The notes under the pieces are model-generated. The model did no database searches. It was not told the DNA's origin and was given only the letters and a program-made list of their open reading frames with translations. Shown piece after piece: positions 173 to 23,000 of a DNA stretch of 64,000 nt. The translations under genes and the position numbers were made by a program. Source of the stretch: a phage. Every line of letters begins with the position of its first letter. The stretch's first letter is position 1. The stretch lies in NCBI GenBank assembly GCA_011939005.1, contig GCA_011939005.1_4858.1, one strand, 5' to 3'.

Positions 173-182
173 GGAGGGTTAA

Positions 183-806: not shown

Positions 807-818
807 AGAAAAAAAGAA

Positions 819-857
819 CTACCTACTCCCTTGGGAGTAGGTAGGCTTTTATTTTTT
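819..857. terminator. bidirectional rho-independent terminator
   Basis: Stem cctactccc/gggagtagg flanked by A-run upstream and T-run downstream, between convergent genes. Confidence 0.7.
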
Positions 858-863
858 ATCGCA

Positions 864-1997: not shown

Positions 1998-2057
1998 GTT
2001 AATAGTCCTTATAAAAGTCAATGGTATTTTCAGATGATTAGTTACTGCTGTAAAAAA

Positions 2058-2324: not shown

Positions 2325-2332
2325 ACATCCAA

Positions 2333-2370
2333 GAATTAAATAAAAGGCGGTCAGACCCGAAGGTCTGACC
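2333..2370 (-). terminator. rho-independent terminator
   Basis: Hairpin ggtcagacc-cgaa-ggtctgacc followed by T-run on minus strand, downstream of gene 2376..2969. Confidence 0.6.
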
Positions 2371-2375
2371 GTTAA

Positions 2376-6655: not shown

Positions 6656-6763
6656 TTAAAACCAACCTTGCATCAATGCAAGGATTGCGCCTAGGGCGTA
6701 TGCGCCCGCTCCTAGTATCAGGCTACAGACGATACACCCAACCCTTTTCACTAAAATAACCAT
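6656..6763 (-). CDS. tiny hydrophobic peptide (35 aa)
   Basis: Hand-translated MVILVKRVGCIVCSLILGAGAYALGAILALMQGWF; single TM; not in ORF track (below length cut-off). Confidence 0.3.
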   Translation of the reverse strand: MVILVKRVGCIVCSLILGAGAYALGAILALMQGWF

Positions 6764-6882
6764 GTTGCTACAAACGCTCCGATTGCGCAAATGATAAGCG
6801 TGATACCAACATCTGTCCATGTGGCACCGTCATACGCACCTGTTGCAATCATGGCTGCGTTGACACTATTCACGACTGTCAT
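6748..6882 (-). CDS. tiny hydrophobic peptide (about 43 aa)
   Basis: Hand-translated MTVVNSVNAAMIATGAYDGATWTDVGITLIICAIGAFVATWLF; AAGGGA RBS; overlaps neighbours by about 16 nt. Confidence 0.3.
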
Positions 6883-7069
6883 AAGCCGGGTCCCTTAAAC
6901 GCGGGGGCTTGCTCCACAGATTACCGAAGTAAACCCCTTCTAAGAACACCAAAACAACTAAGCCCCAAAAGGCAGGCGTAGCGCGAGACATGAAAATACC
7001 GAGTAGCACCACAGTGTGCATTACCACAACTGCCCAAAACTTTAAACGACCAGGTTTACGTCTTGCCAT
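6866..7069 (-). CDS. small membrane protein (67 aa)
   Basis: ATG at 7069 with AAAGGA RBS (track start 7114 is GTG); hydrophobic core FWAVVVMHTVVLLGIFM. Confidence 0.45.
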   Translation of the reverse strand: MARRKPGRLKFWAVVVMHTVVLLGIFMSRATPAFWGLVVLVFLEGVYFGNLWSKPPRLRDPAYDSRE

Positions 7070-7156
7070 GGAATGCCCATCCTTTCGTGCGGATAATCCA
7101 ACCCCAGGCACCACGAATCAACCACAGTGCAATACCGGTTAATACGATACCTTCAA

Positions 7157-7348
7157 TCATGTCCGTTCTCCTATATCTCGCCACTCACAACGCGTGTCGA
7201 ACAGACGTTCTTTAAGAGCAGCAGCTAAATAAACGACCGCAGCGATAACCACTACGGTTGCACAAAAGGAGAGGTACAGTACCATCACAACAAACTGAAG
7301 GAACTGAAAACCCCACCAAGCCCATAAGCGCCAACCTTTATGATGCAT
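7157..7348 (-). CDS. small membrane protein (63 aa)
   Basis: ATG with AAGGGG RBS; Trp-rich hydrophobic segments. Confidence 0.45.
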   Translation of the reverse strand: MHHKGWRLWAWWGFQFLQFVVMVLYLSFCATVVVIAAVVYLAAALKERLFDTRCEWRDIGERT

Positions 7349-9848
7349 ATTTGATTATTACCCCTTCGTTATACACCGGTGGAAGCGTTACACCTTCTGG
7401 TTCCACGACACAGTAGGTGGCTTCGTTAAGTTTAGAATGAACTTCCGCTTCATGCGAAACGACCAGCAATTGAGAAAACTCTCCCGACAACGCCAACGAT
7501 TTAATGAAGTTAACTAATCGGTTTTTGTGTTCTTCATCCATGCCTTCAGATGGTTCATCCAATAACAAAGGATAATTTTGTAAACCAAGTGCTTTATACG
7601 CCGTTAAACGAAACATCATGTTGAAAATGATACGCTGTGCTTTTGAACCTTTCTTCACGTCAGGCACCAGTTCTTCATGGTCTTTTAATCGCACTGGGAA
7701 TGTATAATCCAAATCCCCGTCGGTTAGATCGCATGGAATAACCTGCATCGGATATGCCCACACCATTTCGATATACCGATTCATTAAATCCATGATGCGG
7801 GTAATCGCAGCATAAAAGTAACGACGCAATAATCCTTTTTCGGGTGAGACGGCATTGATAATCAATCTGGCATGATGGTGTTCTTTGAGCAACTCAGCTT
7901 GCTCTTTTTCCAGTTCCGCTAAACGTGCAATAGCCCCTTCCATTTGACGAAACCGTTCACGAGCTGAAGTATACGCATCGAGCTTCGCTTCGCGTCGGTT
8001 TAACAACTCGCGAACCACGACGTTGTTAACGGAGATGTTCATTTCCGATACCAGATGTTCGTAGCCCTTTTGGAAACGTTCGATTGCTTCTTTGGTTTGT
8101 TGCAGTTGGGTGGTTTCGCGTTCCAGCTCATTGGCTTGTCTGCGGTATTCTATCAGTCGTCGGTTAGCCCCGTCCAGTTGTGAACGGATATGTTCAATTT
8201 TCTGGCTCAGCGCACCATCAACGTTACCTACTGCAGCAACAGCCTCTTGCCATTCCCGTTCCGCTGTTGCAAGCTTCGCCGATTGACGCAGATACATCAT
8301 GGCCGAATCTAACTCTTCAGTAAAGGCACGTGCAATGGCACCGTAACGATCCCGCGCCGTGGTGAAGATATCCAGCTCCTGCAGTTTACGGAAAAACAAA
8401 CCGATAACGGGATGATTGGAATACGACATGACGATTTCGCGAATCGTACGTAAGCTACGGACGTCCTCTTCAATCTCTTTGCGGTCACGCAAAAGACTAT
8501 CCATTTCGTCTTTCAGCTGTTTTTTCCAACCTTCATTATCGTTGATGGCCTTTTCAATTTCAGGTAACGACTTACGAATCCCAGGACGGAAACGGTGGTT
8601 ACACTGTGGACAATCAACTTCTGCAGTTTCTAAGAAGTGTTGACGGTCGTGGTATAAACCGTGTAGCACATTCTCACAACGTTGCAACTTTTCAGATAGA
8701 CCCGCAGAGGTTAAATCCATACCCTGTAAACGCTTCTCTAACGCTCCCAGGCGCTCTGTTGTCTTTAACTGGTCCAGATGCATGGACAACGGTAAATTCC
8801 AGTTACAGGCGTCGTTTAACGCGTTCTGAATGCTATCCACGTCGATGCGGGTACCTTCAAACAGAGCCGGGAACATCCAGTTCTGTTGGAATGTTGCCAG
8901 TTCCTGTTTTAAGCTGTCGATTGTTTGTTTTAGACCGGTATGGTTGCGCATCAGATACGCTTGACGCGACTCCTCATCCAGTAGCTGTGACAACTCTTTA
9001 TTGTACATGTTGCATTCAGTTTCAGCAGAGGCAGCTTGCTCGCGCCAGGCAACCACACGACTTTGAAACTCGTTAATCAGTTCGTCAGAAGGCAGAACGC
9101 CATAACGTTCCATAATGAGTTTTACAGCCGGTTGCAACGAAGCAATGCGTTTCCGGATACTATCAACCGAAACGGCGTTATCTAAACCGGGTCTCGCTTC
9201 AATGGTGCGGTTTAGTTCCTGAAGCTCAACGTCCAGTTCTTTCAAACGAACTTCCAAACGTGCACGATCTTCTTCATCGTCAACGACGCGCATTTTTGCT
9301 TCGCCGATTTTTCGTCCGGTGTGCTCAATGGCCCCACTTAAACTGGAAGCGAGTTTACGCAGACGACGATAACAACCAACAACGTACGTCAGATCAGATT
9401 CTGACATTAACGTAAACCATTTACGACGAACTTCAGTGGTGGCGTCTGTTAATAAGGTCTCACCATTAATTAACTCTTTGATTTCTTTGGTGATTCCGGT
9501 TAATTGCTCCACCATGGAGTTGTAAACTTTAGCGTTTACTGAATCTACGATGGAAACACCTTTAGTGATGTTGAAGATACTACAAGACAAAGAAGACCCA
9601 CGTCGCAGGACTTCAAACTTAAGACGGTCGTCCCCAACTAACGCGTAGTTAGTGTAGGAACCACCTTCACGGAATTCTGATTTTGCTGGAGCTAAGGGGA
9701 GAAAAACAGATAGGAGGCTTGTTTTACCGCAGCCGTTGCCACCGAGGATGATGGTAACGGTTGACTTAAGGGTGAAATCAAACGTTTCGATTTCATGTAA
9801 CCCCATGCCGGTAAATCCTTTCAAAATGATACGTTCGACCTTGAGCAT
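7338..9848 (-). CDS. SbcC/Rad50-like recombination ATPase (T4 gp46-like architecture)
   Basis: N-terminal Walker A GGNGCGKTS; long coiled-coil middle; CPQC zinc-hook-like motif; C-terminal Walker B LLLDEP. Confidence 0.8.
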   Translation of the reverse strand: MLKVERIILKGFTGMGLHEIETFDFTLKSTVTIILGGNGCGKTSLLSVFLPLAPAKSEFREGGSYTNYALVGDDRLKFEVLRRGSSLSCSIFNITKGVSIVDSVNAKVYNSMVEQLTGITKEIKELINGETLLTDATTEVRRKWFTLMSESDLTYVVGCYRRLRKLASSLSGAIEHTGRKIGEAKMRVVDDEEDRARLEVRLKELDVELQELNRTIEARPGLDNAVSVDSIRKRIASLQPAVKLIMERYGVLPSDELINEFQSRVVAWREQAASAETECNMYNKELSQLLDEESRQAYLMRNHTGLKQTIDSLKQELATFQQNWMFPALFEGTRIDVDSIQNALNDACNWNLPLSMHLDQLKTTERLGALEKRLQGMDLTSAGLSEKLQRCENVLHGLYHDRQHFLETAEVDCPQCNHRFRPGIRKSLPEIEKAINDNEGWKKQLKDEMDSLLRDRKEIEEDVRSLRTIREIVMSYSNHPVIGLFFRKLQELDIFTTARDRYGAIARAFTEELDSAMMYLRQSAKLATAEREWQEAVAAVGNVDGALSQKIEHIRSQLDGANRRLIEYRRQANELERETTQLQQTKEAIERFQKGYEHLVSEMNISVNNVVVRELLNRREAKLDAYTSARERFRQMEGAIARLAELEKEQAELLKEHHHARLIINAVSPEKGLLRRYFYAAITRIMDLMNRYIEMVWAYPMQVIPCDLTDGDLDYTFPVRLKDHEELVPDVKKGSKAQRIIFNMMFRLTAYKALGLQNYPLLLDEPSEGMDEEHKNRLVNFIKSLALSGEFSQLLVVSHEAEVHSKLNEATYCVVEPEGVTLPPVYNEGVIIKYAS

Positions 9849-9944: not shown

Positions 9945-10571
9945 TTACTGCGGAATAAACTTACGGTGTCCGAGCGATTCCCAAAAACTGTCGGTGCGCT
10001 CTTTGGTTAATTCATACCACGCACGCCCGGCATCAGAATCGACAACCTTTAACGTTTCAGTAAGCAGGAATTTGAACAGTTCAGCGCTACGACCGGGTGC
10101 CACGCCGTCGAGATATATCGGGATTAAATAACCGGTTTTGATTTCTTCGTACGGTTGCGATTGGTGCTGGCCAACAACCCAGGCATCAGCAGCGCTACCG
10201 ACCAATGTGGTGTTTACAGTTAACTCATCAGAAATCCAGTTAACTGTATCAGCCATTATTGAATCGCCATTGACGTAGAAGAAAACTAAACGTTTAGGTT
10301 GCTCCACCGAACCAGCCAAATCTAATGCAGTAGTTCCGGTGAAGATCGTATTATTGGGATTACGTTCTGCAATAGGTAGAGCAAACCACGCTTCGAGCTG
10401 CCCCCAGCTACGCGGCAGTGCTTCTTTAAACCACTTCACCAATCGCGGGTATTCCAGAAACCCTTCTACCTCTTCTTCCATCAGATTGATACGCAGTTTG
10501 GTATCCTGACGATTCGCTTTCTGACACGTCACCATGTCGTCGATGAAACGAATCAGGGTAATCTCGTTCAT
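9945..10571 (-). CDS. hypothetical protein (208 aa)
   Basis: ATG with AAGGAT RBS; no Mre11-type phosphoesterase motifs. Confidence 0.65.
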   Translation of the reverse strand: MNEITLIRFIDDMVTCQKANRQDTKLRINLMEEEVEGFLEYPRLVKWFKEALPRSWGQLEAWFALPIAERNPNNTIFTGTTALDLAGSVEQPKRLVFFYVNGDSIMADTVNWISDELTVNTTLVGSAADAWVVGQHQSQPYEEIKTGYLIPIYLDGVAPGRSAELFKFLLTETLKVVDSDAGRAWYELTKERTDSFWESLGHRKFIPQ

Positions 10572-10587
10572 GTTTAATCCTTCTTCA

Positions 10588-10617
10588 ACAAAAAAAGAAG
10601 GTAGCCCGTAGGCTACC
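10588..10617 (-). terminator. rho-independent terminator
   Basis: Hairpin ggtagcc-cgta-ggctacc with T-run on minus strand. Confidence 0.6.
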
Positions 10618-10625
10618 TCTCGTAT

Positions 10626-11126
10626 TTACAGCCCCATATGCATAAGGGAAATGATTGGGACCTTACGGCCACGAATCATTGCATACGGTTCGTACATTTG
10701 TGCGTTAGTTTCGAATAACTCACAGGCCGGAATACGGTCACCGGTAGAGAGTTGTAAGACCTCAATTTGGTCGCCCCAGAAGTTATTCACTAATACGTGG
10801 TCGACAGTGTTGTCTTCACGACCTTCAGGGGTTTTGCAATAAGTGGCTGCATCGTACCAACCTTTGCGGTATACTTCATATCCCGCATGAAGCATCCGGT
10901 AGTACGGACGTAGCTGTGGGGCATTCAACGCAGCATCTAACCATTCGCTGTGGATGCTGTTAATCAGTACGGTTGCTTCTGCTGGCCAGTCGGTGCGATT
11001 GAGGGTTAACTCGCCTAACAACTTCAACTTCCAACCAGTAGAAAGAATAGCACGGGTACGTTCAGGGTTAACGTTCATCTGAGTAAAGAAAGAAGAACGG
11101 GTATCGTCGAGAATGTTCATGTTCAT
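10626..11126 (-). CDS. hypothetical protein (166 aa)
   Basis: ATG at 11126 with AAGGAT RBS; track start 11192 is GTG inside the terminator hairpin. Confidence 0.6.
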   Translation of the reverse strand: MNMNILDDTRSSFFTQMNVNPERTRAILSTGWKLKLLGELTLNRTDWPAEATVLINSIHSEWLDAALNAPQLRPYYRMLHAGYEVYRKGWYDAATYCKTPEGREDNTVDHVLVNNFWGDQIEVLQLSTGDRIPACELFETNAQMYEPYAMIRGRKVPIISLMHMGL

Positions 11127-11155
11127 TTGCTTAATCCTTACGGGTAATAGTCGAT

Positions 11156-11230
11156 TAAAAAGGACCCTGCGGCTAAGTGTTGGGGAGATCACCGCAGGGC
11201 CAAAGTGAGATGGGTCGTCATCTCACGTTA
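11156..11230 (-). terminator. rho-independent terminator (compound hairpins)
   Basis: Stems ccctgcgg/ccgcaggg and gtgagatg/catctcac followed by T-run on minus strand, downstream of gene 11256..11639. Confidence 0.5.
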
Positions 11231-11255
11231 TAACATCTGTCTGAAAACTTTTCGG

Positions 11256-11639
11256 TTACTGGTCGAGCGCTATTGAACCACGCACTTCGCCTTGTTGTTC
11301 AATAACCAGGAGGCGCTGTTTGGTTTTCGTATTGTAAGCGAGCGACGCGCGAAGCGTCGGGTCGCACGTTATTGTCTCTACCGGCACAATCTCTTGTGCC
11401 TTTGAGTTCAACAGAAAGTAGTAACCTGCCGGACAAGTTTCCTCGCCCTTTGCGTGGACTAGGATGTACTCGTCGTGCCGGCTGACTTCTTCACATCTAC
11501 CATCGTCGCCAGTACAGACTTCGAATGAAGGCGGGTTGTACTGATACGGTGTGCCCGGCAGTAAATCTTCTACGCTGGTTGTAGCTGAAGCGGAAGCGGT
11601 CAAGAACACCGCCGCGATAATACCCATAAATCCACGCAT
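11256..11639 (-). CDS. small secreted Cys-containing protein (127 aa)
   Basis: ATG with AAGGAA RBS; signal-peptide-like N-terminus MRGFMGIIAAVFLTASASA; four Cys. Confidence 0.6.
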   Translation of the reverse strand: MRGFMGIIAAVFLTASASATTSVEDLLPGTPYQYNPPSFEVCTGDDGRCEEVSRHDEYILVHAKGEETCPAGYYFLLNSKAQEIVPVETITCDPTLRASLAYNTKTKQRLLVIEQQGEVRGSIALDQ

Positions 11640-11652
11640 GTTGTTTCCTTAC

Positions 11653-12063
11653 TTAAAAGTCGAGTTTATTGATGCCTACGTTTTTCTTAATCGTAGGGTC
11701 GTACATGATAACCGTCAGGGCATTGTCGCCTGGGTCGCGAGTAAACTCGGCAACGGCTTCACCACTGCAGGCTTGGTTATCATTATAGTTCATGGATTCG
11801 GCTTGCCCGGTTGCCATGTTAATAACCCCGTATTCAGGGTCGCCACATGCGACACCGCCCATCGTTTTCACTAACAGGTAACGGTTGTTATCGGACATCG
11901 CAACGATCTGGCAGCTACCGCCTTGTACGTCAGAGTTCTGGCACCAGAACTGTCCGCCGTATTCGTGATCGTTAACAACTTTTGGTAACTCGATACTTCC
12001 AGCGCGAGCGAAGAAGCTAATGGCCAGAGTAGCAAGTAAAACTGGTAATAAAAAATGTTTCAT
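11653..12063 (-). CDS. small secreted Cys-containing protein (136 aa)
   Basis: ATG with GAGGTG RBS; signal-peptide-like N-terminus MKHFLLPVLLATLAISFFARAGS. Confidence 0.6.
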   Translation of the reverse strand: MKHFLLPVLLATLAISFFARAGSIELPKVVNDHEYGGQFWCQNSDVQGGSCQIVAMSDNNRYLLVKTMGGVACGDPEYGVINMATGQAESMNYNDNQACSGEAVAEFTRDPGDNALTVIMYDPTIKKNVGINKLDF

Positions 12064-12085
12064 AATAGCACCTCAATTTTTTGAG

Positions 12086-12577
12086 TTATTCTGAATAGTC
12101 GATTGTTTTGATGGTTTCCATACCGTAGTACATAGCGATGGAGGCCAGAGTTTTGGTATCAGGTCGCTGTACAAAACCGGCCCTGAAATCTTTGCTGCAA
12201 ATTTTCTCCACTGATAGTTCATCACGATTAGGGATAAGCCATAACGCGTCACCGTTGTGACGGTCGACTGCACCCCACCAACCACCTGGGCAATCTTTAT
12301 CGCCCGGACGGTGTACGATAGCGACACGTCCGTTGAAGGATATGTCAACTACACGACACTGTTTCTTAAGCAGCTTACGCGCATTGCACCAGAACGGCTT
12401 ATCATTAAGATTGATGGTGCGGGTATATGCTGGAATGCTGCCGTTAATACTGCCCTGGAACCCGCTGAATTCGTCAGCGCGTGCCTTAGAAATCCGTAGC
12501 CCAACAACAACTGCCATCAACAGCACAGTAAAAAGCACCACCTTAATCAGGTGGTGATTAACGTTATTGCATTTCAT
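12086..12577 (-). CDS. exported or membrane-anchored protein (163 aa)
   Basis: ATG at 12577 with GGAGA RBS; N-terminal hydrophobic stretch LIKVVLFTVLLMAVVVGL. Confidence 0.55.
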   Translation of the reverse strand: MKCNNVNHHLIKVVLFTVLLMAVVVGLRISKARADEFSGFQGSINGSIPAYTRTINLNDKPFWCNARKLLKKQCRVVDISFNGRVAIVHRPGDKDCPGGWWGAVDRHNGDALWLIPNRDELSVEKICSKDFRAGFVQRPDTKTLASIAMYYGMETIKTIDYSE

Positions 12578-12965
12578 TTTTGATATCTCCACGAATGAGG
12601 GTGATGCGACCAACGAGCACATCGTTGTGATAAAAACTCACAGCAACCAGATCTGGCAATTCCAACGGCGATACGCTGACCGAAGTGACTTTTGGTTGAT
12701 CGCACGATATGTCGATTAATCGCTGATACATTTTCAGTTTCTTATCAGCGATAACCAGCCCTGTGCAGTTCTTACCATCCGTCAGTTTGTAGATTTGTAA
12801 CTGTTCGACCTCACGCATCAGTTCCGGTTTTTCATTCGGTGCAATGCCATAATCCGAATCAGCTGATGTGTATTCAGTCACGTCTGGCTTATCGAAAGCA
12901 TAAGTTGCTGCGATACCACATGCGGCCAGAACTACTACTGCTTGTAAGAACTTCTTGATAGTCAT
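12564..12965 (-). CDS. putative lipoprotein (133 aa)
   Basis: N-terminus MTIKKFLQAVVVLAACG with lipobox-like LAAC. Confidence 0.55.
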   Translation of the reverse strand: MTIKKFLQAVVVLAACGIAATYAFDKPDVTEYTSADSDYGIAPNEKPELMREVEQLQIYKLTDGKNCTGLVIADKKLKMYQRLIDISCDQPKVTSVSVSPLELPDLVAVSFYHNDVLVGRITLIRGDIKNEMQ

Positions 12966-12990
12966 GTTTTACTCTATAGTCGATTGGTTT

Positions 12991-13019
12991 AAAAAAGAAT
13001 AGGCTACCCGGAGGTAGCC
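12991..13019 (-). terminator. rho-independent terminator
   Basis: Hairpin ggctacc-cgga-ggtagcc followed by T-run on minus strand. Confidence 0.6.
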
Positions 13020-13022
13020 ATT

Positions 13023-13063
13023 GAGTTAATCTCTTAACTCTCACCTAAGTAATATATATCTGA
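13023..13063 (-). promoter_or_regulatory. conserved element copy 1: palindrome gagttaa-N4-ttaactc plus shared 30-mer
   Basis: 30-mer ttaactctcacctaagtaatatatatctga at 13034-13063 is identical to 61077-61106; both carry the same upstream inverted repeat. Confidence 0.4.
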
Positions 13064-13069
13064 GATATT

Positions 13070-13657
13070 TTACAATGTGAACGTTGTGTTAAGAATACGA
13101 AAACCCAATGCTCGCTTAGCGATTTGCATATTTGCAGGCGTGAAGTCCACCAGTTTGATTTGAACGATCGATAAATCGTAAAGCTTGTGAAGCACTTCGA
13201 TTTTGTGTCGCCAATCTGTTTTTTGGTGCAGCTCTATCGTCGTTGGTATCTCGCCTAGTCTCGGCAACTGTGCTCCAAGTAAACGATGATGGACTTTACC
13301 GTTTATAGTTGGGGTGCCTTCCGTGACCATCAGTCGCGCATCGATGTAGTTATTTCGCTTAGCGTACTCCATAAAAGTTTTGACATTTATCTTTTCCTCG
13401 TATAGAATGCTGCGAAAGTATTCGTAAATGATGTGTCCTGCCTCCCTACCGCTTTCCGAGTCCGGAATAACCTTATCGATGAAAATCGCAGAGACCACTT
13501 CGTTCCCACGCGAATGCATTGTAATGACCCTGTCCCCGTGCTGCGCAGAAGTTATTAACCCACTTACATCAAGCCCCACTGGGAACAAGCCGCGACTACG
13601 CATTACGTGCAGGTCTTCTAACCTGTTCTCTTGCAGTCGTAAAATACGTTCTGTCAT
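13070..13657 (-). CDS. hypothetical protein (195 aa)
   Basis: ATG at 13657 with GAGGTG RBS (track start 13666 is GTG). Confidence 0.6.
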   Translation of the reverse strand: MTERILRLQENRLEDLHVMRSRGLFPVGLDVSGLITSAQHGDRVITMHSRGNEVVSAIFIDKVIPDSESGREAGHIIYEYFRSILYEEKINVKTFMEYAKRNNYIDARLMVTEGTPTINGKVHHRLLGAQLPRLGEIPTTIELHQKTDWRHKIEVLHKLYDLSIVQIKLVDFTPANMQIAKRALGFRILNTTFTL

Positions 13658-13690
13658 ATACCACACCTCAAATTAATTTGAGTTAAGTGT

Positions 13691-13731
13691 AAAAAATAAG
13701 AGGACTCCAGTAACCCTCGTGGTTACTGGAG
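13691..13731 (-). terminator. rho-independent terminator
   Basis: Hairpin ctccagtaacc-ctcgt-ggttactggag followed by T-run on minus strand. Confidence 0.6.
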
Positions 13732-14267: not shown

Positions 14268-14827
14268 AAAGCTCCTTTAAAGTGGTATGTTAAGCTTTCT
14301 ACGAGATGGCAGGTTTGGCTTTCAAAGAAGTGTAAAATGGGCTCAATGGGCACACCGCCGAGATTATAGACGATTACGTCCTGCTTTAATCCGGCATCGA
14401 CTTCGCTAAGAAACGATTCGGTTGCGAGTTCACTCTCTGACGAGGAAAGGGTAATCGTTGTTTCCCCATCGTCGCTACTACCAGACGCATCCTGTAAACG
14501 CAAAACGGTCGGTACGGTTTTACTGATACGAATATCTGGCGGGAGTGTAACCTCCAGTAGCGGTGTACGGACTTTACGCGCAAGATAGTTGGTGAATAGA
14601 TTGGGATCAAGCTCACTGACGCCACAGCAAATGCAGTTCAGTAAGGTCGACAAGCTTGTCGTTTTGCGTTCAAATATCCCCTTGATCTGTTTGGCCTTAT
14701 CGCTATAAAGGAACACCAACAGCTGGTCGGGGTTATCCGGTAAATCACTTTCAACTCCTTCCCACTCCGGATCGTTGCGGATGTGCTCTTGCCAGATATC
14801 GTTTCGAATTTCTAGTAAACGGAACAT
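14264..14827 (-). CDS. hypothetical protein (187 aa)
   Basis: ATG with AAGGTG RBS. Confidence 0.6.
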   Translation of the reverse strand: MFRLLEIRNDIWQEHIRNDPEWEGVESDLPDNPDQLLVFLYSDKAKQIKGIFERKTTSLSTLLNCICCGVSELDPNLFTNYLARKVRTPLLEVTLPPDIRISKTVPTVLRLQDASGSSDDGETTITLSSSESELATESFLSEVDAGLKQDVIVYNLGGVPIEPILHFFESQTCHLVESLTYHFKGAL

Positions 14828-14836
14828 ACACTCACC

Positions 14837-15418
14837 TTACGCAATGTAAATACCACGGTGGTTACGGAAACCGTGTTCTTCGGTAAGGTAGCGCGCATAG
14901 GTGTGCTCGACGGATGGGGTGTAGCAAACCAGATGCAATTCCTGACCTTCAGCTAGGCCCGGTAACATGACGTTTAGCCAATCCATCCCGCCGTTCTGCT
15001 GTAACGTATCTTGCGACAGCGTTAGTGGCTGAACAATATGCGCTGGGTTACTGTCGTCTTCGCTTTTCGTAAAACGAAGAATAGCCGGACGGGAACCATC
15101 TACTAGTACCGTGCGTGGTAAGTCAAAAGCAACCACCTTCGCTTTCTGTTCGTAGGATGATTTATAACGACGTAACAGTCCAATATCGGTATCTAGTACG
15201 GTAGCCATCACGTTATACAACATCACTAGACGGGCGTCGTTATCGATGGTGACGTGTTTTACGAACACCATCATCGGAATACCTTCGCGTTGGAATACCA
15301 CGAAGTCTGCTTCTTTGTATTTCTCGCAACCTTCTACTACCCGTGGGGCTTTCACGCGATAGCGGCGGGTCAGTTCTTCGTAGTTCATTTCATGTTGTTC
15401 AATAATTGGTTGTGGCAT
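14837..15418 (-). CDS. hypothetical protein (193 aa)
   Basis: ATG start, weak RBS. Confidence 0.6.
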   Translation of the reverse strand: MPQPIIEQHEMNYEELTRRYRVKAPRVVEGCEKYKEADFVVFQREGIPMMVFVKHVTIDNDARLVMLYNVMATVLDTDIGLLRRYKSSYEQKAKVVAFDLPRTVLVDGSRPAILRFTKSEDDSNPAHIVQPLTLSQDTLQQNGGMDWLNVMLPGLAEGQELHLVCYTPSVEHTYARYLTEEHGFRNHRGIYIA

Positions 15419-15440
15419 GGTTAAATACTCTTTACGGTTA

Positions 15441-15469
15441 AAAAATAAGAAGGGGGTACAAGACCCCCG
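15441..15469 (-). terminator. rho-independent terminator
   Basis: Hairpin gggggt-acaa-gaccccc with T-run on minus strand. Confidence 0.6.
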
Positions 15470-15478
15470 ATGGCGAGA

Positions 15479-16717
15479 TTACAGTAAACGCAAATCTGCG
15501 ACAAACAACAGTTGACGGCCGTACTTAGTCACTTCTTTCCAGCCATTGTTAACACCCCATTTGATGATAGCGTCGTAATGCCACTGTTTCAGTTCGTTGG
15601 TACCCCACGCATCCCGTACCGCCTTCGCCGACATCAAATAAGCAGGTTCGGCAACGGAGCGCATTTCAGAATCTGGCAGGCGAGAAACAACGGAACTGTT
15701 CACGCGCTGCAGTGTACCGGACACCTGTATCCAGAACGCAGGCGATATTGTATTTGTCGGTCGACAGTCAAATACCCAGGCCGTGTCATTTTCACTGGCC
15801 GGGGTCTTGCGTTTATAGATGCTTAACAGTATTTCTGACTGGATAACTTCGCGGAAAACAGCAAGAAGTGCGATGACTTTCTCATTAACCACCTCATCCT
15901 TTTCGACCTTATAGTAATCTTTAAGGTTTCCGGGCTCTGCTATCGGCATTACTGACCAAACATCGGCGTCTAACATCTCACCGAAATAATGGTTAGCGTT
16001 TTCATCAGATGTCCAGAACATCGTATTACCGTCATTGGCAGTGGTGGCTAGATCACGCAGTGCTTCCTTGGTGTCTTCGTCAATTTCCACAGGTTTGGCT
16101 GCTTCACGCGGTGCGTTTTTCGTGTAGAATCTGCGCTTGCTTACCGCTCTATTCCATACGGTAGTAATTTGGTACGCAGTGAATTCGGGGAACTGCTGCA
16201 CCAACACTTCCGCATCAACATCAAGCCGCTCTGAATTAAAGTTTTGTAATTTCTCATTAAACCCTGTATTCAGCTCTCCGCCAGTCCACCAGTTGCTGTC
16301 GCTTAGTGCAGGCATGTCAGGTGTTAACTCGAACACCGGTTTACCGGTCAGCAGAGTAAGAATGTAGTGCACCCACATTGTGTTACCCTCAGCAATGGCG
16401 CGTCCGATGTTTTGATTACCCGATAGGTAAGCTACACGCGAATCCCCTTCGAATGTCATGGTTAACTCAACCCACGGCGCTAAGTCAGAGACGTGGTGGC
16501 CTAAACGGCACTTTACTTCCCCTTTGTCAAGCAGCCGCTTTTCGACAACGGTTGAGAGCTTTTGTGGCAGGCACGCACAATCCTGCCACGTTACGTCGCT
16601 GTAAGCCATACTCCGAATATTGAACTGCATTCCCAACAGTACAATTGTGTTAGTAATTACTGCATTAAAGAATGCTTCTTTCGGTGTCTGGTAAACTAAT
16701 TCGTATTCGTTATACAT
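15479..16717 (-). CDS. hypothetical protein (412 aa)
   Basis: ATG at 16717 with AAGGAA RBS preferred over track start 16753. Confidence 0.65.
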   Translation of the reverse strand: MYNEYELVYQTPKEAFFNAVITNTIVLLGMQFNIRSMAYSDVTWQDCACLPQKLSTVVEKRLLDKGEVKCRLGHHVSDLAPWVELTMTFEGDSRVAYLSGNQNIGRAIAEGNTMWVHYILTLLTGKPVFELTPDMPALSDSNWWTGGELNTGFNEKLQNFNSERLDVDAEVLVQQFPEFTAYQITTVWNRAVSKRRFYTKNAPREAAKPVEIDEDTKEALRDLATTANDGNTMFWTSDENANHYFGEMLDADVWSVMPIAEPGNLKDYYKVEKDEVVNEKVIALLAVFREVIQSEILLSIYKRKTPASENDTAWVFDCRPTNTISPAFWIQVSGTLQRVNSSVVSRLPDSEMRSVAEPAYLMSAKAVRDAWGTNELKQWHYDAIIKWGVNNGWKEVTKYGRQLLFVADLRLL

Positions 16718-16838
16718 TTGGTATTTCCTTTTAAAGTACACTAAAGTGACCAAAAAATGTTACTAAAGAACAGTTGGTGTTTAAGCGACTGTGGGTTTAT
16801 ACACAATGCTCACTAAGATGACATCTATCTGTAAAAAC

Positions 16839-17156
16839 TTAGTATACGACCAGTACGATGCAGTCATCGATAGCCAGATTCAGTAATGAGTAGTCGTTAC
16901 TTAACCGCTGGTAACGCATCCCTTTTTCAAACCGACTTAGTTGTTCAGTCGGCATGACGTATACCGCGCTTTGCACTACTCCCGTAAACAGTTCGTCGTA
17001 GAACTGGTCTACTTCCCCGACTTTGTAAAAGCGCATTCTTTGATTGTTAGCAAAGACGCTATCTAGCTTCCCGTTACTGGCTTTCTGTAACGCAGTAAAG
17101 GCACTGTCTGCATCATTACGCTCTAATGCACTTTTAATGGTTTGAAATAAAGACAT
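16839..17156 (-). CDS. hypothetical protein (105 aa)
   Basis: ATG with GAGGAG RBS; diverges from the plus-strand structural block. Confidence 0.55.
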   Translation of the reverse strand: MSLFQTIKSALERNDADSAFTALQKASNGKLDSVFANNQRMRFYKVGEVDQFYDELFTGVVQSAVYVMPTEQLSRFEKGMRYQRLSNDYSLLNLAIDDCIVLVVY

Positions 17157-17340
17157 GGTACTGCACTCCTCGTTAGGTTAAAAGTCAAGGTCAACTACAA
17201 AACAAAAGGATGTCGGTATCCTACGGATACCTCCGTTTATGTTCGCATCCAATACATAAACCCCCTTACCCCCGTACTCTCCTCGATTGTCAAACGATGA
17301 GATCGAAACGTAAAAAAGTGTAGTATGAGAGGAGGGTGGT

Positions 17341-18273
17341 ATGAACAAATCTAAGTCAGGGTTGCACATCTTCTCGATAGGTATCGTCGCGGAAGATAAA
17401 CCTCGTGGTGCCACTCGAGTTAAAGTCATCCCTATCGAAGTTAACTTTATTAATCCAACAGCTGTCGATGCAACAGAGACGCCTGTAGAGAAGCAACACA
17501 ACAGTTTAAGTGGTACTGACAACCTTACTGTAAAGCAAGGTAATGCCATCACTGCAAAATGGATGAAGTCCAACAGCAACCGGGTTAACCCTCCGGATGT
17601 GAAAAAAGAAGACTACGTAAGAATCTGGCGTATCGGTGAAACCGATATGTACTTCTGGGAAGATTTAAACAACAGTAACGTTAAGCGACTGGAAGATGGG
17701 GTATACGCCTGGTCTGCTGACCCAGTAAACCAGATGGCCGATGACCTCTCTAACGCCTACGTACTGAATATCTCCCCGATGGATGGTCACGTTACTTTAC
17801 GTACCAGTATGACTAACGGCGAGAAAAATGCGTATTTGCTCCAGCTGAATACCCGTGACGGGTTTTGCCAGTTAGTGGATGACGAAGGGCGTAAGTTCTA
17901 CCTCAACTCTCCAGAGGATGACTTAGGGTTTGAAAACGCCTGCCGGTCGAAGATTAATATCAATAAAGAGGACGCTTTCATTTATGCTAAACGTTCTATT
18001 AATCTCGAGACAAAGACGATTAACGAGAAGTGCGAAACTCGCAACTCTACAGCGTCGAAAAACATGGCATGGAAGACTGAAGACTGGAAGACCACATGCC
18101 CAACGAATCTATTTACCGGTAACCTGGAAGTAGGTAAAGATTTCCTCTATAACGGCAAAGGTGAAGGTAAGGGCACATTCACAGTTACCGAATCGGTTAT
18201 CGGCGGCATCACCTTTACTCTTCACGTACATACTGGCCATGGTCCGGGCAACGACACCAGTACACCACACTAA
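17341..18273 (+). CDS. putative central tail spike / baseplate hub protein (gpV/gp138-like apex)
   Basis: Strong RBS gaggagggtgg; C-terminus ...GITFTLHVHTGHGPGN contains an HxH motif like the iron-binding apex of membrane-piercing spikes; assignment by analogy only. Confidence 0.5.
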   Translation: MNKSKSGLHIFSIGIVAEDKPRGATRVKVIPIEVNFINPTAVDATETPVEKQHNSLSGTDNLTVKQGNAITAKWMKSNSNRVNPPDVKKEDYVRIWRIGETDMYFWEDLNNSNVKRLEDGVYAWSADPVNQMADDLSNAYVLNISPMDGHVTLRTSMTNGEKNAYLLQLNTRDGFCQLVDDEGRKFYLNSPEDDLGFENACRSKININKEDAFIYAKRSINLETKTINEKCETRNSTASKNMAWKTEDWKTTCPTNLFTGNLEVGKDFLYNGKGEGKGTFTVTESVIGGITFTLHVHTGHGPGNDTSTPH

Positions 18274-18433
18274 GTTATTTACGTGTGTGGGGTATAATGT
18301 GACAATAAACCCCTAACTGTAACGATAACCCGAATCGCTTGTGCACAGTTAGCCACTTTTTTCGCACAAAAGCCGGTTTATTGTCAACTAATTTACGAGT
18401 CGGGGCAGTTAATATGCCTTGAAGTACAAGTAG

Positions 18434-18460
18434 TTGAACATAGGGTTCTTCTGCTATCAT
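18434..18460 (+). promoter_or_regulatory. candidate sigma70-like promoter (TTGAAC-15-TATCAT)
   Basis: Hexamers about 20 nt upstream of the 18481 ATG; spacer is short (15 nt), so weak. Confidence 0.25.
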
Positions 18461-18480
18461 TTGTTAATGGAGATAAGTAA

Positions 18481-18690
18481 ATGAGCATTCGTGAAATCAC
18501 CGCAGGCAGCGACGTTTCTGGTCTGGTAGAAGCAGGCACCGTTCAGGTTTCTGGACTGAGCACCGTTACCGAAGTTACCGAAGCGCTGGCTAAGAAAGCC
18601 GAAGCTGAAGGCGGCGTAGCATTTAAAGTTACCGCTTGCGGCGGCAACAACAAAATGTTCGGCAACGCCATCTATTACGTAAACGCGTAA
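18481..18690 (+). CDS. DUF1471 (YdgH/BhsA/McbA-like) domain protein, no signal peptide
   Basis: GTVQVSG...LAKKAEAEGGVAFKVTACGGNNKMFGNAIYYVNA matches the BhsA-family pattern G.h.LDE.LA.KA.E.GA..F+ITS....N.L.GTA.IYK; own terminator. Confidence 0.6.
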   Translation: MSIREITAGSDVSGLVEAGTVQVSGLSTVTEVTEALAKKAEAEGGVAFKVTACGGNNKMFGNAIYYVNA

Positions 18691-18702
18691 TCGGCCTGCA
18701 GG

Positions 18703-18761
18703 CAAAAAAAGATATAGGTACCCTACTCCCGTTGGGAGTAGGGTTTACCTTTTATTTTTTT
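18703..18761. terminator. bidirectional rho-independent terminator
   Basis: Hairpin ccctactccc-gtt-gggagtaggg flanked by A-run and T-run between convergent genes. Confidence 0.7.
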
Positions 18762-20014
18762 CGTGCTTTGTAGCGATGCATTTCAACAAATGGCTTACCC
18801 CAAGCCCCGAAAGGCCCGACGATTGCCTGCGCGTCGTTTACCAAATTCTGGTTATACCAACGCGCGTTCCCCAACAAAAAGTTTTCCCGGTCGAAGAATG
18901 TGGTATTAAAGACCCACTCCCCTTCTTCCCAGGTCGGCCAGTACCCTACACATTTACCAATACGGTTAAAGATAGGACCTAGCGTCTTCTTCCCATCTGG
19001 GTCAGTCGGGTCTTTTAAATAGAACCGGCCCCAGATAGCGTTGTGGCTTATTCCGTGAATCTCTTTTTCGAGATACGGGTTGTCTATCGTAAAGATAAAC
19101 GAGGATTCGTGCGTCAGCAACGCTTTTAACGTTTCTGAGTTACGAATACGTTGAACGGACGTAGGCGTACTTAAATCACCTACACCGATGGCGTCCCAAT
19201 CGTAATAGCGACGGGTTTCCAATACAATCTTCGCCACGCTAAGGTTTGGCAGACTCAGCATAATCGCACGGTCGCTGAAATAGCCCTGCGGTGGCAACCA
19301 ATGCAGAATACCCCCGATGACGAACCCAACGGTTTTCCCTGTAATGGAATCGGGTAAGGTCAACATTAACGAAGAATAGTAATCTCGCGTAGTATCGAGT
19401 TTGTTCATCGTTAAACCGGATATGGGGTAAGTCTTCACTTTACCAATATTCGCCATCACTAGACAGCCGATGTCGGGTGTGTTGGCTCTCCGCACGATGT
19501 TACCAGCACCGGTTAAGCGAACGCCCACAGGGTCAGATTGGTGCGGTACCCACTGACCGTTGATGTTGTACAGTACCCCGGTACGGTATTTTTCTTTCCA
19601 CTCATCGTCGCAGACTACAACAACGTCGTGCGCATCATCAGGGTTGAAGTCCTGAGTGTAATGGTACCCAGGAGGGCACAGGTGCGTTTCTACGGGCACA
19701 TCTGCATTAATAGACTGGTAATGTGCCTCAGCGAATTCTAACTTCGGTAGGCCTTTCCCAAGCGTTGGAATTGCGATTCCTGACTTGGTGTTTAACCAAT
19801 CTTGCAACGTGTCCGTACGGTTTTGTAAATCAGCCAGGTGATACTGGCTATAGAAGGTATATTCGGCACCTAGTGCTTCTAGTCCTACTTCGAAAAAGTG
19901 GTAGTTAGCACAAAGGGTATTTAAGGGCTGCGTGACATCGATGGTTCCCCAAGTTCGGGTGTCTCGAGAGAAGCCAAAAGCGCTGTCGGCCCGCACTTGA
20001 TAAGCAGTAGTCAC
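18752..20014 (-). CDS. hypothetical protein, probably virion-associated (420 aa)
   Basis: Long ORF with apparent GTG start and AGAGGAAA RBS; embedded in structural block. Confidence 0.6.
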   Translation of the reverse strand: MTTAYQVRADSAFGFSRDTRTWGTIDVTQPLNTLCANYHFFEVGLEALGAEYTFYSQYHLADLQNRTDTLQDWLNTKSGIAIPTLGKGLPKLEFAEAHYQSINADVPVETHLCPPGYHYTQDFNPDDAHDVVVVCDDEWKEKYRTGVLYNINGQWVPHQSDPVGVRLTGAGNIVRRANTPDIGCLVMANIGKVKTYPISGLTMNKLDTTRDYYSSLMLTLPDSITGKTVGFVIGGILHWLPPQGYFSDRAIMLSLPNLSVAKIVLETRRYYDWDAIGVGDLSTPTSVQRIRNSETLKALLTHESSFIFTIDNPYLEKEIHGISHNAIWGRFYLKDPTDPDGKKTLGPIFNRIGKCVGYWPTWEEGEWVFNTTFFDRENFLLGNARWYNQNLVNDAQAIVGPFGAWGKPFVEMHRYKARKK

Positions 20015-20081
20015 TGGCTGTTTCCTCTAAGGATTCGGGTCATAGTATGAACTCGACGCCCTCAGAGAAAAGGAGTGTAAA

Positions 20082-23000
20082 ATGGCTGTCGTCCCTGACC
20101 CGCACTATCAAGAACCGGGGAATATGCAGACCGGTGAAGCGGTAACGCCGATCGGTACTAAGTACCGGATGCTGTTCCCCGCACACGCCCCCTTTTATAC
20201 CACATCCCTGGTGGTCAAGAGTGGCGGCAAGAAATTAACATTAGGTGATGATTACGTCATCACCCATGCGTACGTTACGGGCATGGCACGCACTGGCCAT
20301 GTTTGTCACGGCGGCGTGTGGATTACCAACCCGAAATATCAGAGTGGCTTTACACTCGATTACCACGCAATTGGCATCGGTGAAGCCACTGCAGAAATGA
20401 TCGCCGCAGAACGAGAAGCGAATAAAGATCGCTATCCCGTGGACTGCCAATGGGATAACGTCATTGGGGATTTATATTTCCCACCGGTCGATATTAAGTT
20501 CGATTGGGAAAACTGGCGTGGCGAATCTGAGTTGATGGAAGCCATTGTTGCGGTTGGTGCTAAGCTCGGTGAAGCGATCAGTCGCGTTGACCCGATTGCT
20601 CGTAACACGTTAGACCTTCAATATCGCGCCGGCGTCACGCTTATCACGTCCGAGCAGTATGCGACGTACGACGGTACTGGCGGCTACACGTATAACGCGT
20701 CACGTCGTCGTTATTCGTTATCTTACCAGAACACGACATTCGATGCGTATTCGTTAGCGGTAAAATACCGTTTACCGAGCATTCCACCGGAAACAACGTT
20801 GAACCCAGGCGAGTTGATCGATTGGATGCTCTGTTACGCAAACGGTGGGACAAGTATCCTGCGTCTTCAGTTGAAGCAACGCGCGATTTATCTTACCTTA
20901 ACGACAGCGATTGGTTCCGGTTCGTCCAATTACAGCTATACGTTGACGACTGGCCTGACTGATACCGAGTTGGCGGGTGAGGTTGAGTTTAGCGTGGTCA
21001 GACGCGAAGGTAACGGCGTTTACGACATCACCGTTAAAACAAGCAAGCAAACCGTTAACTACAGCTTTAACGTTGACAACCCACCGAGCGAATTTGCACC
21101 AGGGTATCAGAAAACTGATGTCGCAAAATGGTTGAAGTTTAAATCGGGCGTCAACCTAAACTGGTGGGCAGGTGAGAACGATTACGTCCAGATTCGTTCA
21201 TTACCAGGCGCACCGGCACCTGACGTTAACAATGACGTGTACCAGCTGCTGGTAAAATATCACCAGATTGTCGATAAACTGTACCGTGATGCACCGGCAC
21301 ACACACACGTGCCGCGCAAGGATAACCCGCATCGCGATTCGTGGGGCGCAATCCGTGCTTTGGAGAATAACGGTATTGCTTCGGACGCGACACTGGTATA
21401 CGGAAAAACGCAACCGCAGCTGACAGATTACGTTAACAATCTGTTGCCGAAACTGTCAACGCTGGCGAATAAGCTTTTACGTTTACCGGCGGCTGCACAG
21501 TCTATCATCGGCACGTTCGGCATGAAGCCTGGCCTGACTTCAATAACGTCAGCAGTGGGTACCGATGAGTCTGAAGGCGTGGGTGCACAATTCACGGTTG
21601 ACCCGAGGGTTATCCGTTTTATTGGCCGCGATTCGCAAACCGTTAACGCCGGGAACAATCCGATTACATGGCAAGGTGGGGCTAACCAACTCATCCTTTA
21701 TCCGGATTCCCGTGGATTGGAGTTCAACGGTAAGAAACTGTTGGACCCTACTACGGTCGGGCCGTACCTGCCGGGTAACGAATCAGGTGGTGATGGACTG
21801 TTTTACGGAACATCCACAGCTACTGTAACCATTAACGGTAACGGTATTCAGTCTGTTCCGTTCATTTGTACCTTTGTTCCACCGGAGTCCGATGACCTTG
21901 GCCTGATGGCTGTCCGTTTGTTGGCTACTGAATTCGGCGATCGTGAGGACTTGGCCGCAACGCCGGCACTCATCAAGAAATTGGATCAGCAGTTTACGGG
22001 CAAGTTGGTTGCCGTTAAATCGTACATCAACGACATGCCACTGACGAGTTCTATTTACATCGATAAAACTAACTTCGGCTTATCGAACGTACAGAACATC
22101 CCAGATGTACAATTGCCGATTTCCCCGCTCCAACAAGCTGAGCTGGACAAGTATGCAGTCGTCGGTCACAAACACACTTCTGCCGCGTTCGGGATTAAGC
22201 GTGCAACAACGACGGAGTTCGGTTTAGTACAGTTCGGCACCGCGGTTGACGATGCCACTCTGGCATTAGACGGTGGTGAGGTCATCCGACAGGCGGACGC
22301 CATCACAGAGATAGAGAAGGTTGCGAAGACAGTCGACTCTGGTGCTTCAATCAACATTATTCGTTACGGTTTACCCGGCACGGATATCATTGAAAACGGC
22401 ATCACTTACACCGACTGGATGGTTACTATTAAAGCGAACGATTATTTCGTTGGTCGCGAGTACAAAGTACCTCTCTCCACATTTAACTTGGCGGAGCTAT
22501 TCCCAGCGACGCACGAAGATGCTGAGTTTGGCGTGTATGTTGACGCGGCGGGCGATGACGGCAAGTACATTATCTACGAAAATCCAAACACGGCAGAAAC
22601 TGAGACGATGACCAAAATAGGTTCCATCATCACCAGTGAAACCGGTGTGGTTTTTGTAGAAATCCGCAACGTGACGCGTTTAGGTGAGTTCCGTGAATTA
22701 GGCGAGCATATCGAGGATGATAACGCCCATATTCGTCGGGGCATGACGCAAGCTGAATTCGGATTTACTTACGGTACGGGCGGGCCTGTGTGGTCCACGG
22801 GCGCACCGGGTACAAAACGTATAGATGCTGATTGGCGTTACGCGCAGGCTAGCGGCTATACGCCTATGTTGAAAGCGGACTACGATCCGGCTGCTGATAA
22901 ATGGACGTTTAAAACAACCAGTTTATCTGTAACCGATTATCGTTTTGTCCACAACACGTTCCCGATGTTCCAGAATAACGGCATTACCGCAACGTGGACA

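Follow-up and report, generated by a model that had tools for sequence, protein, structure and literature searches.

The stretch of phage DNA analysed here (the window) is 64,000 nucleotides in length (GenBank assembly GCA_011939005.1, contig GCA_011939005.1_4858.1) and carries a cassette of four small genes at positions 11256 to 12965, here named D, C, B and A in the order in which they follow one another. Comparison of their products using BLASTP and profile alignment revealed them to be diverged tandem paralogues of a single, previously undescribed domain family of approximately 105 residues, a relationship that the initial annotation of the window had missed. That annotation had placed four co-directional open reading frames (ORFs) in this region, and they were found exactly there, all on the minus strand. 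It is considered very probable that the products form an exported, non-structural paralogue family that acts in the cell envelope. The best explanation of the cassette as a whole, to which a probability of approximately 45% is given, is that it supplies periplasmic binding or inhibitor proteins for entry exclusion or for the control of murein hydrolases.

The source DNA is that of a nucleus-forming jumbo phage of the SPN3US type (Seoulvirus, Chimalliviridae). Positions 10500 to 13700 share 96-98% identity across their full length with Escherichia coli phage EC001 and with Salmonella phages JN03, SPN3US, SEGD1 and the SPFM series. SPN3US itself is a member of Seoulvirus (Chimalliviridae) and uses the flagellum as its receptor (PMC11428620). 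Genes A to D correspond to the hypothetical genes SPN3US_0180 to SPN3US_0183 (D being gp180, C gp181, B gp182 and A gp183), and the SPN3US numbers are used for their products hereafter.

Among the four products, gp182 and gp181 were found to align using BLASTP (E 4e-8), and gp183 aligned with both with all four of its cysteines in register. PHROG 5248 was matched by gp183 and PHROG 17072 by gp181, both also cross-hitting PHROG 8968, and all three proteins were identified to cross-hit one another's PHROG families. Four cysteines (Cys1 to Cys4) and one glycine are invariant in an alignment of 25 sequences that includes orthologues and bacterial homologues. One gp182 orthologue outside this pattern (P0003, 71% identity) possesses a tyrosine at the otherwise invariant Cys3, reflecting either a sequencing error or the natural loss of the second disulfide.

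The relationship of gp180 to the other three is more distant. No alignment was obtained between it and the A/B/C family using BLASTP, and shallow profiles gave an hhalign E-value of 0.27, with the observed score being reached by 42 of 200 shuffles. Following the addition of orthologues from Machinavirus and Wellingtonvirus, comparison of gp180 with the A/B/C profile gave a score of 29.0 (E 9e-5, 79 columns), which none of 100 column shuffles reached (mean 10.5, standard deviation 2.2, maximum 18.4). In this alignment Cys67 and Cys88 of gp180 fall on Cys3 and Cys4 of the family, and on the strength of these profiles gp180 is regarded as a divergent copy that has kept only these two cysteines. 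A 116-aa D-like protein from a metagenome contig matched the hidden Markov models (HMMs) of both D and A/B/C, bridging the two groups. The contig in question (L026; SRR25891147_533801, 1672 bp), which is unrelated to the phage, was observed to encode four consecutive small exported proteins that mirror the phage cassette, in the order D-like (2 Cys), a 2-Cys protein, B-like (4 Cys) and A-like (4 Cys).

The cysteines of the mature proteins were located at positions 42, 49, 69 and 92 in gp183, at 41, 51, 73 and 99 in gp182 and at 64, 74, 96 and 127 in gp181, with gp180 possessing Cys67 and Cys88 in addition to its lipobox Cys16. The earlier count of two mature proteins with four to six cysteines thus needs to be corrected to four each in gp183, gp182 and gp181 and two in gp180, the figure of six having arisen because an over-long ORF of 178 aa had been used for gene C. 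The start of gene C lies at MKCNN, with GGAG 9 nt upstream, in agreement with the annotation of SPN3US, and the longer ORF lacks a ribosome-binding site.

The family is real, small and rare. An HMMER scan of 1.84 billion representative proteins gave just 36 clusters at E <= 0.001, and nearly all members retrieved from these are of 105-165 aa with a signal peptide and the four cysteines. The initial statement that no recognisable catalytic motif is present holds, with searches of Pfam, NCBIfam and PADLOC being empty for the four proteins and PHROGs returning only families of "unknown function". Even at E <= 10, Pfam gave only scattered single chance matches for 31 family members (the four window proteins included), with none to YfjS_YafY (PF20494). 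PADLOC likewise identified no known anti-phage defence system for the four proteins, for their island homologue or for the approximately 300-aa island partner protein described below.

Export signals were judged by heuristics, by their conservation among family members and by the invariant cysteine pattern. All four N-termini possess an n-region containing lysine or arginine and, after it, a hydrophobic segment whose Kyte-Doolittle maximum over 11 residues is 2.5-3.1, an arrangement kept in 46 of 48 family members by the hydrophobicity criterion. The earlier assignment of an export signal was borne out for every protein, with ASA/T in gp183, ARA/G in gp182, RISKARA/D in gp181 and a LAAC lipobox in gp180 (slashes mark the signal end). 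A crude hydrophobicity scan flagged a signal peptide on seven of the approximately 72 ORFs of the window, including A, B and D of the cassette, with gene C going unflagged because its longer 178-aa ORF was read. Four exported genes in a row are therefore no chance run, and are explained by tandem duplication.

The signals of gp183 (ASA/T) and gp182 (ARA/G) are of the Sec type cleaved by signal peptidase I, which is characterised by a positively charged n-region, an h-region of 7-15 residues and small residues at -3 and -1, and both proteins are predicted to be soluble in the envelope. In gp181 a long n-region and a 15-residue h-region are followed by RISKARA/DEF, with the four family cysteines lying in the mature domain. 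It carries an ARA/D motif, yet its charged c-region and long h-region would fit either cleavage or an anchor. Of the signal anchor previously proposed for this protein, the hydrophobic N-terminus stands but the anchor is doubtful, as orthologues keep an AxA site right before the mature domain (KARA/DEF, PAHA/DEF, KAHA/DEF and HRANA/N), with one (P0026) having a short, ordinary signal peptide ending in PAHA/DEF. Probably gp181 is soluble as well. The description of gp180 as a lipoprotein agrees with its canonical LAAC, which fits the lipobox pattern [LVI][ASTVI][GAS]C at the end of the h-region and is seen only in the SPN3US lineage, but the lipobox cysteine is not conserved among the orthologues compared (P0048, P0049, L017, L018, ChrisDB gp203, Wellington gp199 and Machina gp192), in which this position reads LATC, LAFS(G), TAFV(G), IAVC(V), AAVC or has no cysteine. 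Wellington gp199 is of the last kind and possesses a plain signal ending in VSA/P. In the phage examined here gp180 may carry a lipid anchor and be directed to the outer membrane, with the anchor and lipoprotein labels appearing uncertain and lineage-specific at best.

Invariant pairs of cysteines are expected for periplasmic disulfides under established DsbA biology. As the cysteines of the family are invariant, the mature proteins are likely to reside in an oxidising compartment. The spacing of the cysteines, together with the retention of exactly the second pair by gp180, suggests that the likely disulfides are Cys1-Cys2 and Cys3-Cys4, with gp180 possessing the second only.

Mature gp182 was modelled using AlphaFold with a predicted local distance difference test (pLDDT) of 91.4 and a predicted template modelling (pTM) score of 0.85, giving an all-beta domain with a short helix between Cys1 and Cys2 followed by seven strands. 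The model of gp180 (pLDDT 67, core 75-84) shows seven strands in the same order. The domain is thus predicted to be all-beta and non-catalytic in appearance, resembling two blades of a beta-propeller. The fold search yielded this resemblance in place of the lysozyme-inhibitor or Ig-like fold that had been suggested at the outset, and a reading of the phage proteins as lysozyme inhibitors was rejected on fold and gene context, with neither model resembling any known lysozyme-inhibitor fold. No close relative of the modelled domain was identified in the PDB, PDB sequence searches with the family profile, the profile of the island partner and YfjS returned nothing meaningful, and a fold search of BFVD returned only uncharacterised orthologues from jumbo phages.

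A structural role in the virion would have contradicted the initial annotation, and none of the four proteins is a virion component. The published list of SPN3US virion proteins, determined by gel electrophoresis with liquid chromatography and mass spectrometry (Table S4, PMC5105663), includes gp171 and gp173 with gp193 as the next entry, and gp180 to gp183 are absent. Neither are they mentioned in other papers on the SPN3US proteome (PMC5694885, PMC10052503), and no paper naming them was found.

Chromosomal homologues of the B type, equal in length and with 43-45% identity, were identified in Salmonella, E. coli and Klebsiella, and 142 of the 5426 complete E. coli genomes carry one; a search with the B-subfamily alignment found only two species-representative genomes and five viral contigs. 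In bacteria these genes lie in integrative islands of the CP4 type, downstream of a YeeP/YfjP-like GTPase, a WYL/YafY-family regulator and two tiny ORFs. Upstream of them, DUF905/DUF932, a KlcA-type antirestriction protein, RadC, DUF987 and CbeA/CbtA are encoded. The bacterial islands were found to possess only two copies of family domain genes. One E. coli island (L009/L012, at 1-3605 and 14272-20101) was observed to carry an OLD-type ATPase with a UvrD helicase (Gabija-like), a pseudogene for an Mrr-type endonuclease and a type I restriction system; this island is defence-rich.

Adjoining the bacterial gp182 homologue is an exported protein of approximately 300 aa, encoded after the B-type gene in most islands and before it in one (L029). 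It consists of a sub-threshold Ivy-like segment, a Pro/Ala-rich linker and a C-terminal four-cysteine family domain. Its C-terminal 110 residues matched the family with an hhalign score of 30.6 (E 4e-5, 86 columns, 0 of 100 shuffles reaching it) and with all four cysteines aligned. For four homologues of this partner, with identities down to 52%, the N-terminal segment matched Pfam Ivy with E-values of 0.0014-0.0074 and scores of 17-19 bits, below the cutoff of 21, with NCBIfam Ivy giving an E-value of 0.081. Comparison with E. coli Ivy gave E-values of 4e-4 (BLASTP) and 5e-4 (hhalign), and the CERGNC/CENGSC loop of the partner falls on the inhibitory CKPHDC loop of Ivy. No relevant match to the partner was identified among 50,697 phage records using tblastn, and the window proteins themselves gave no match to the Ivy family (PF08816 / NF007443). 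The fusion of the two domains hints that the family may work alongside an inhibitor of murein-cleaving enzymes.

A further link leads to the E. coli lipoproteins YfjS and YafY, which define PF20494 (YfjS itself scoring 228 bits). In E. coli K-12 the slot occupied by the island genes holds yfjS-yfjT in CP4-57 and yafY-ykfB in CP4-6. On one bacterial locus (L030) a WYL regulator is followed by a family member (P0082) and then by a 155-aa protein 48% identical to YfjT, and as P0082 is situated between the WYL regulator and the YfjT homologue (the layout yfjR-yfjS-yfjT), it stands in the place of YfjS. This positional test concerns the bacterial member P0082 and is not applicable to the phage copies. 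Comparison of YfjS/YafY with the A/B/C profile gave an hhalign score of 24.2 (E 6e-4), which none of 100 shuffles reached, with the margin over the best of them (23.3) being marginal; Cys3 and Cys4 are matched in this alignment. When the D profile was used, the observed score was equalled or exceeded by 5 of 100 shuffles. Using tblastn, YfjT and YfjS gave no relevant match in the 50,697 phage records. It is likely, but unproven, that the phage family and YfjS/YafY form one superfamily, with the phage proteins not being filed under PF20494.

Taken as periplasmic binding or inhibitor proteins, gp180 to gp183 would each cross the inner membrane by Sec through the N-terminal signal, have their conserved cysteines oxidised in the periplasm (DsbA-dependent disulfides) and stay in the envelope, acting there by binding and not by catalysis. 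They would be non-enzymatic binding or inhibitor proteins whose targets lie in the periplasm of the infected cell, most likely enzymes that cleave murein or some other step in the envelope on which incoming DNA depends. The infected or island-carrying cell could in this way exclude superinfecting phages or other mobile elements, keep its wall from being damaged too early in the long infection cycle of a jumbo phage, or both. Family members were confined to lytic jumbo phages and to integrative islands that otherwise carry anti-restriction, toxin-antitoxin and defence genes, a distribution that fits a role in mobile-element competition at the envelope. Exclusion could work, for instance, through the neutralisation of murein hydrolases carried by the incoming virion, as in the case of T4 Spackle. 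The Ivy-like fusion partner of the bacterial islands provides an indirect lead in favour of enzyme inhibition. Exclusion or inhibition of murein hydrolases as the specific mechanism is proposed tentatively.

Several points weigh against this explanation. No family member has an experimentally established function, and the disulfide pairing and localisation were inferred and not computed from coordinates. The Ivy matches lie below the Pfam gathering score (17-19 versus 21 bits) and occur in a bacterial partner that the phages lack. The cassette also evolves no faster than its neighbours, whereas many exclusion or receptor-masking proteins diversify, as would be predicted of an arms-race role.

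A bolder form of the proposal, regarded as unlikely, is that the two-blade paralogues, alone or as a split propeller-like hetero-oligomer, attach to enzymes that cleave murein or to the apparatus with which incoming virions enter. They would then represent superinfection-exclusion or lysis-protection proteins of a new structural class, and CP4-type islands would have taken up their domain both in the form of YfjS/YafY and in the Ivy-fusion module.

The link to YafY brings in another possibility, namely that the proteins modulate envelope stress or homeostasis, signalling to or damping host stress systems, in the manner of the remotely similar YafY, and so perhaps stabilising the envelope or down-regulating surface structures such as the flagellum. 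Only two lipoproteins of E. coli activate Cpx when overproduced, YafY being one of them (PMC6538781), a family member stands in the YfjS slot beside a YfjT homologue, the profile match of YfjS/YafY to the family (0 of 100 shuffles, Cys3/Cys4 aligned) points the same way, and SPN3US has flagella as its receptor (PMC11428620). However, that homology is marginal given the best shuffle, and 0 of 31 members match PF20494. The effect of YafY is moreover one of overproducing an inner-membrane lipoprotein, whereas three of the four phage proteins possess no lipobox and gp180 has glycine and not aspartate at +2, and deletion of yafY gave no phenotype in the same study (PMC6538781). On balance such a role is judged to be improbable.

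Masking of a receptor, porin or channel in the manner of T5 Llp or phi80 Cor, with the paralogues binding different host proteins of the outer or inner membrane in place of murein enzymes so as to block adsorption or DNA passage and spare progeny from debris, would suit proteins that are small, exported, cysteine-containing and outside the virion. The glycine at +2 of the gp180 lipobox predicts the outer membrane under the +2 rule, and several paralogues, in copy numbers of three to five between genera, could cover several targets. Yet the flagellum that serves SPN3US as receptor is no periplasm-facing barrel protein, the gp180 lipobox is not conserved in orthologues and the cassette proteins resemble neither Llp nor Cor nor any other known exclusion protein in sequence or fold. 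This reading is considered quite improbable.

The resemblance to two propeller blades raises the question of whether units of the three to five paralogues pack into one closed, propeller-like ring (4 x 2 = 8 blades) as a periplasmic platform, which would be the functional entity whatever it binds. In favour of a hetero-oligomer, all loci examined show strict adjacency of D and B-type genes, and a further array, of the order D/2-Cys/B/A, occurs on the unrelated metagenome contig. A copy number of three, four or five, with only two copies in bacterial islands, is difficult to reconcile with such a ring, and the differing predicted localisations speak against a single soluble one; this assembly is thought to be decidedly unlikely.

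Little credence is given to lysis-associated proteins, that is, a spanin-like pair with antiholin-like periplasmic sensors controlling or executing envelope disruption. The anchored-looking gp181 and the lipobox of gp180 superficially resemble an i-spanin/o-spanin pair, but the predicted domains are globular and all-beta, being neither coiled-coil nor proline-rich. Anchor and lipobox are both unconserved in orthologues, no endolysin or holin is adjacent (the neighbours being the SbcC recombination gene and unknown cytoplasmic proteins), and homologues occur in integrative islands that are non-lytic. Spanins of the Rz/Rz1 type, which comprise an i-spanin with an N-terminal transmembrane domain and a coiled-coil periplasmic domain and a small, proline-rich o-spanin lipoprotein, both encoded in a lysis cassette, were rejected on the all-beta globular models and the lack of adjacent lysis genes. 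That the products are virion or assembly proteins, or chance exported-looking non-genes, has a negligible probability, with small size alone in its favour, as against their absence from the SPN3US virion list and the conservation of ORFs with invariant cysteines across four phage genera and bacteria. Both the lysis-related and the structural explanations are contradicted by fold, context and proteomics.

The essential SbcC-like gene gp186 (7338-9848, minus strand) lies downstream of the cassette (Table 1), and the place of the cassette two genes before SbcC is constant in the Seoulvirus, Machinavirus and Wellingtonvirus loci examined. The order D-C-B-A is kept in phiEaH2-like and Asesino-like loci, with Machina, ChrisDB and pSal-SNUABM-04 possessing D-B-A and Wellington possessing D-B-A plus one further four-cysteine copy. 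The number of copies per cassette was thus three to five, with the gp180 type always first. Using tblastn, D and B were each identified in 64 phage records, which for both genes are distributed identically over the organism names (33 Salmonella, 27 Erwinia, 2 Escherichia, 1 Enterobacteria and 1 Proteus). Between the window and the phiEaH2-like locus, amino acid identity was 44-62% for the cassette, 26-55% for flanking genes of unknown function and 64% for SbcC, and on the basis of these values the cassette is considered to be conserved under purifying selection and not hypervariable.

The hairpin between gp179 and gene D is taken as the probable upstream boundary of the cassette transcription unit and the hairpins after gene A as its probable downstream terminator. 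The latter fold with a minimum free energy of -36 kcal/mol (z -3.14), which none of 200 shuffles equalled. In the window the 10-mer AATCGACTAT has just three exact copies, against approximately 0.1 expected by chance; each is on the minus strand, within this region and close before a start codon. With one mismatch, it was found again approximately 20 nt upstream of the D homologue and before the gp184 homologue in phiEaH2-like and Asesino-like loci, and it is a candidate promoter or regulatory motif.

Table 1. Features of the gp180-gp183 cassette and related loci. Positions without a locus prefix refer to the window.
Feature	Position	Strand	Remarks
Gene D (gp180 homologue)	12564-12965	-	133 aa; opens the cassette; divergent paralogue; mature Cys67, Cys88
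Lipobox L13-A14-A15-C16 of gene D	12918-12929	-	Gly at +2; read from sequence
Gene C (gp181 homologue)	12086-12577	-	163 aa; 14 nt overlap with the end of D
Gene B (gp182 homologue)	11653-12063	-	136 aa; signal ends ARA/G; four invariant Cys
Gene A (gp183 homologue)	11256-11639	-	127 aa; signal ends SASA/T; four invariant Cys; last gene of the cassette
Terminator-like hairpin GGCTACCTCCGGGTAGCC, then T-run	13002-13019	-	between gp179 and gene D
Two stable hairpins	11163-11226	-	directly after gene A; second (11163-11201) followed by CUUUUU
10-mer AATCGACTAT	12976-12985	-	11 nt upstream of the D start codon
10-mer AATCGACTAT, further exact copies	12095-12104 (before B), 11147-11156 (before gp184)	-	close before the start codons
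AATCGACTAT, one-mismatch copies	L017 near 5072 and 6934; L018 near 5073 and 6937
Island partner protein, approximately 300 aa	L012:10077-11015, L004:8477-9415, L014:6474-7415, L029:6060-6947		annotated as hypothetical protein

An additional ORF of approximately 465 aa was observed between the gp179 and gp180 homologues of the phiEaH2-like and Asesino-like phages (L017:3378-4778, L018:3388-4779), and the window does not possess it. Owing to the presence of this ORF in those two phages, the junction upstream of the cassette is regarded as an insertion point. Many SPFM records (e.g. LR535905, LR535901 and LR535908) match the region only in approximately 40 short pieces, and the SPFM predicted proteins P0006-P0011 and P0036-P0045 are truncated or chimeric, which suggests frameshift-rich assemblies and not real gene variation.

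Other features were noted elsewhere in the window. Two adjacent proteins of approximately 130 aa with 21 and 20 cysteines are encoded at 34533-34925 and 34936-35340 (plus strand), followed by ORFs at 36495-37409 and 37402-38730 (plus strand) with CxxxCxxC motifs of the radical S-adenosylmethionine (SAM) type (SKCNLDCSFCGG, SCNLDCEYCYE). Judging from these motifs, the cysteine-rich pair and the radical-SAM-type proteins look like a peptide-modification module in a jumbo phage, similar to those for ribosomally synthesised and post-translationally modified peptides. Further envelope-directed products are a 163-aa protein with lipobox LVGC (40640-41131, plus strand), a 240-aa protein with signal peptide NSNA/S (2966-3688, minus strand) and, encoded immediately after the SbcC gene, three small membrane proteins (6656-7348, minus strand).

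Nucleus-forming jumbo phages have been studied almost wholly for cytoplasmic events, and an exported cassette that is conserved under purifying selection indicates that they invest in the envelope too. The link to YfjS/YafY is weak but twofold (profile similarity and gene position), and there is a second link to a module with an Ivy-like fusion partner, so experiments with the phage proteins could also shed light on a module that is widespread on islands of Enterobacteriaceae. Were the two-blade inhibitor proposal true, it would provide a function for long-standing E. coli y-genes. SPN3US-type phages are used in Salmonella biocontrol cocktails, and superinfection exclusion or murein-hydrolase inhibition, if true, would bear on the design of these. 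Should no such explanation be true, the cassette would be an ordinary accessory gene family.

Among known systems, the beta-propellers (WD40, TolB, the N-domains of peptidase S9 and engineered two-blade fragments) differ from the phage domain in that the latter is no closed propeller and has no repeat motifs. Its model contains no closed ring of four or more four-stranded blades, and disulfides are predicted to staple the domain in place of ring closure. Ivy is an inhibitor of vertebrate lysozyme that is also reported to control the lytic transglycosylase MltB. The phage proteins possess no similarity to Ivy (PF08816), and the loop of the island partner lacks the histidine of CKPHDC; what would be shared is a periplasmic, signal-peptide-bearing, disulfide-containing, non-enzymatic binder. 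The lysozyme inhibitors PliC/MliC, PliI and PliG are similarly small beta-proteins, periplasmic or lipoprotein, with a disulfide, and the window proteins matched none of them by family HMM or by fold.

YfjS and YafY are, like the phage family, small exported proteins of mobile elements with about 125 mature residues and no assigned function, and two of their cysteines match Cys3 and Cys4 of the phage family, the surrounding motif ...G..C.(G)GYY.L(V/I)(D/N)... being common to both. They differ in being inner-membrane lipoproteins with lipobox LSAC-D or LIAC-D (Asp at +2), whereas gp181 to gp183 have no lipobox and possess an extra Cys1-Cys2 segment with a short helix, and gp180 has glycine at +2. 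Spackle (Sp) of phage T4 is a helical protein that inhibits the tail lysozyme of incoming T4. It and T4 Imm, T5 Llp and phi80 Cor are encoded by single genes and not by a tandem paralogue array, no sequence or fold relation of these to the cassette was detected and the helical Spackle contrasts with the all-beta domain. As these systems are generally described, what they have in common with gp180 to gp183 as proposed here is that all are small, non-structural phage proteins which are exported by Sec or lipid-anchored and which act in the periplasm.

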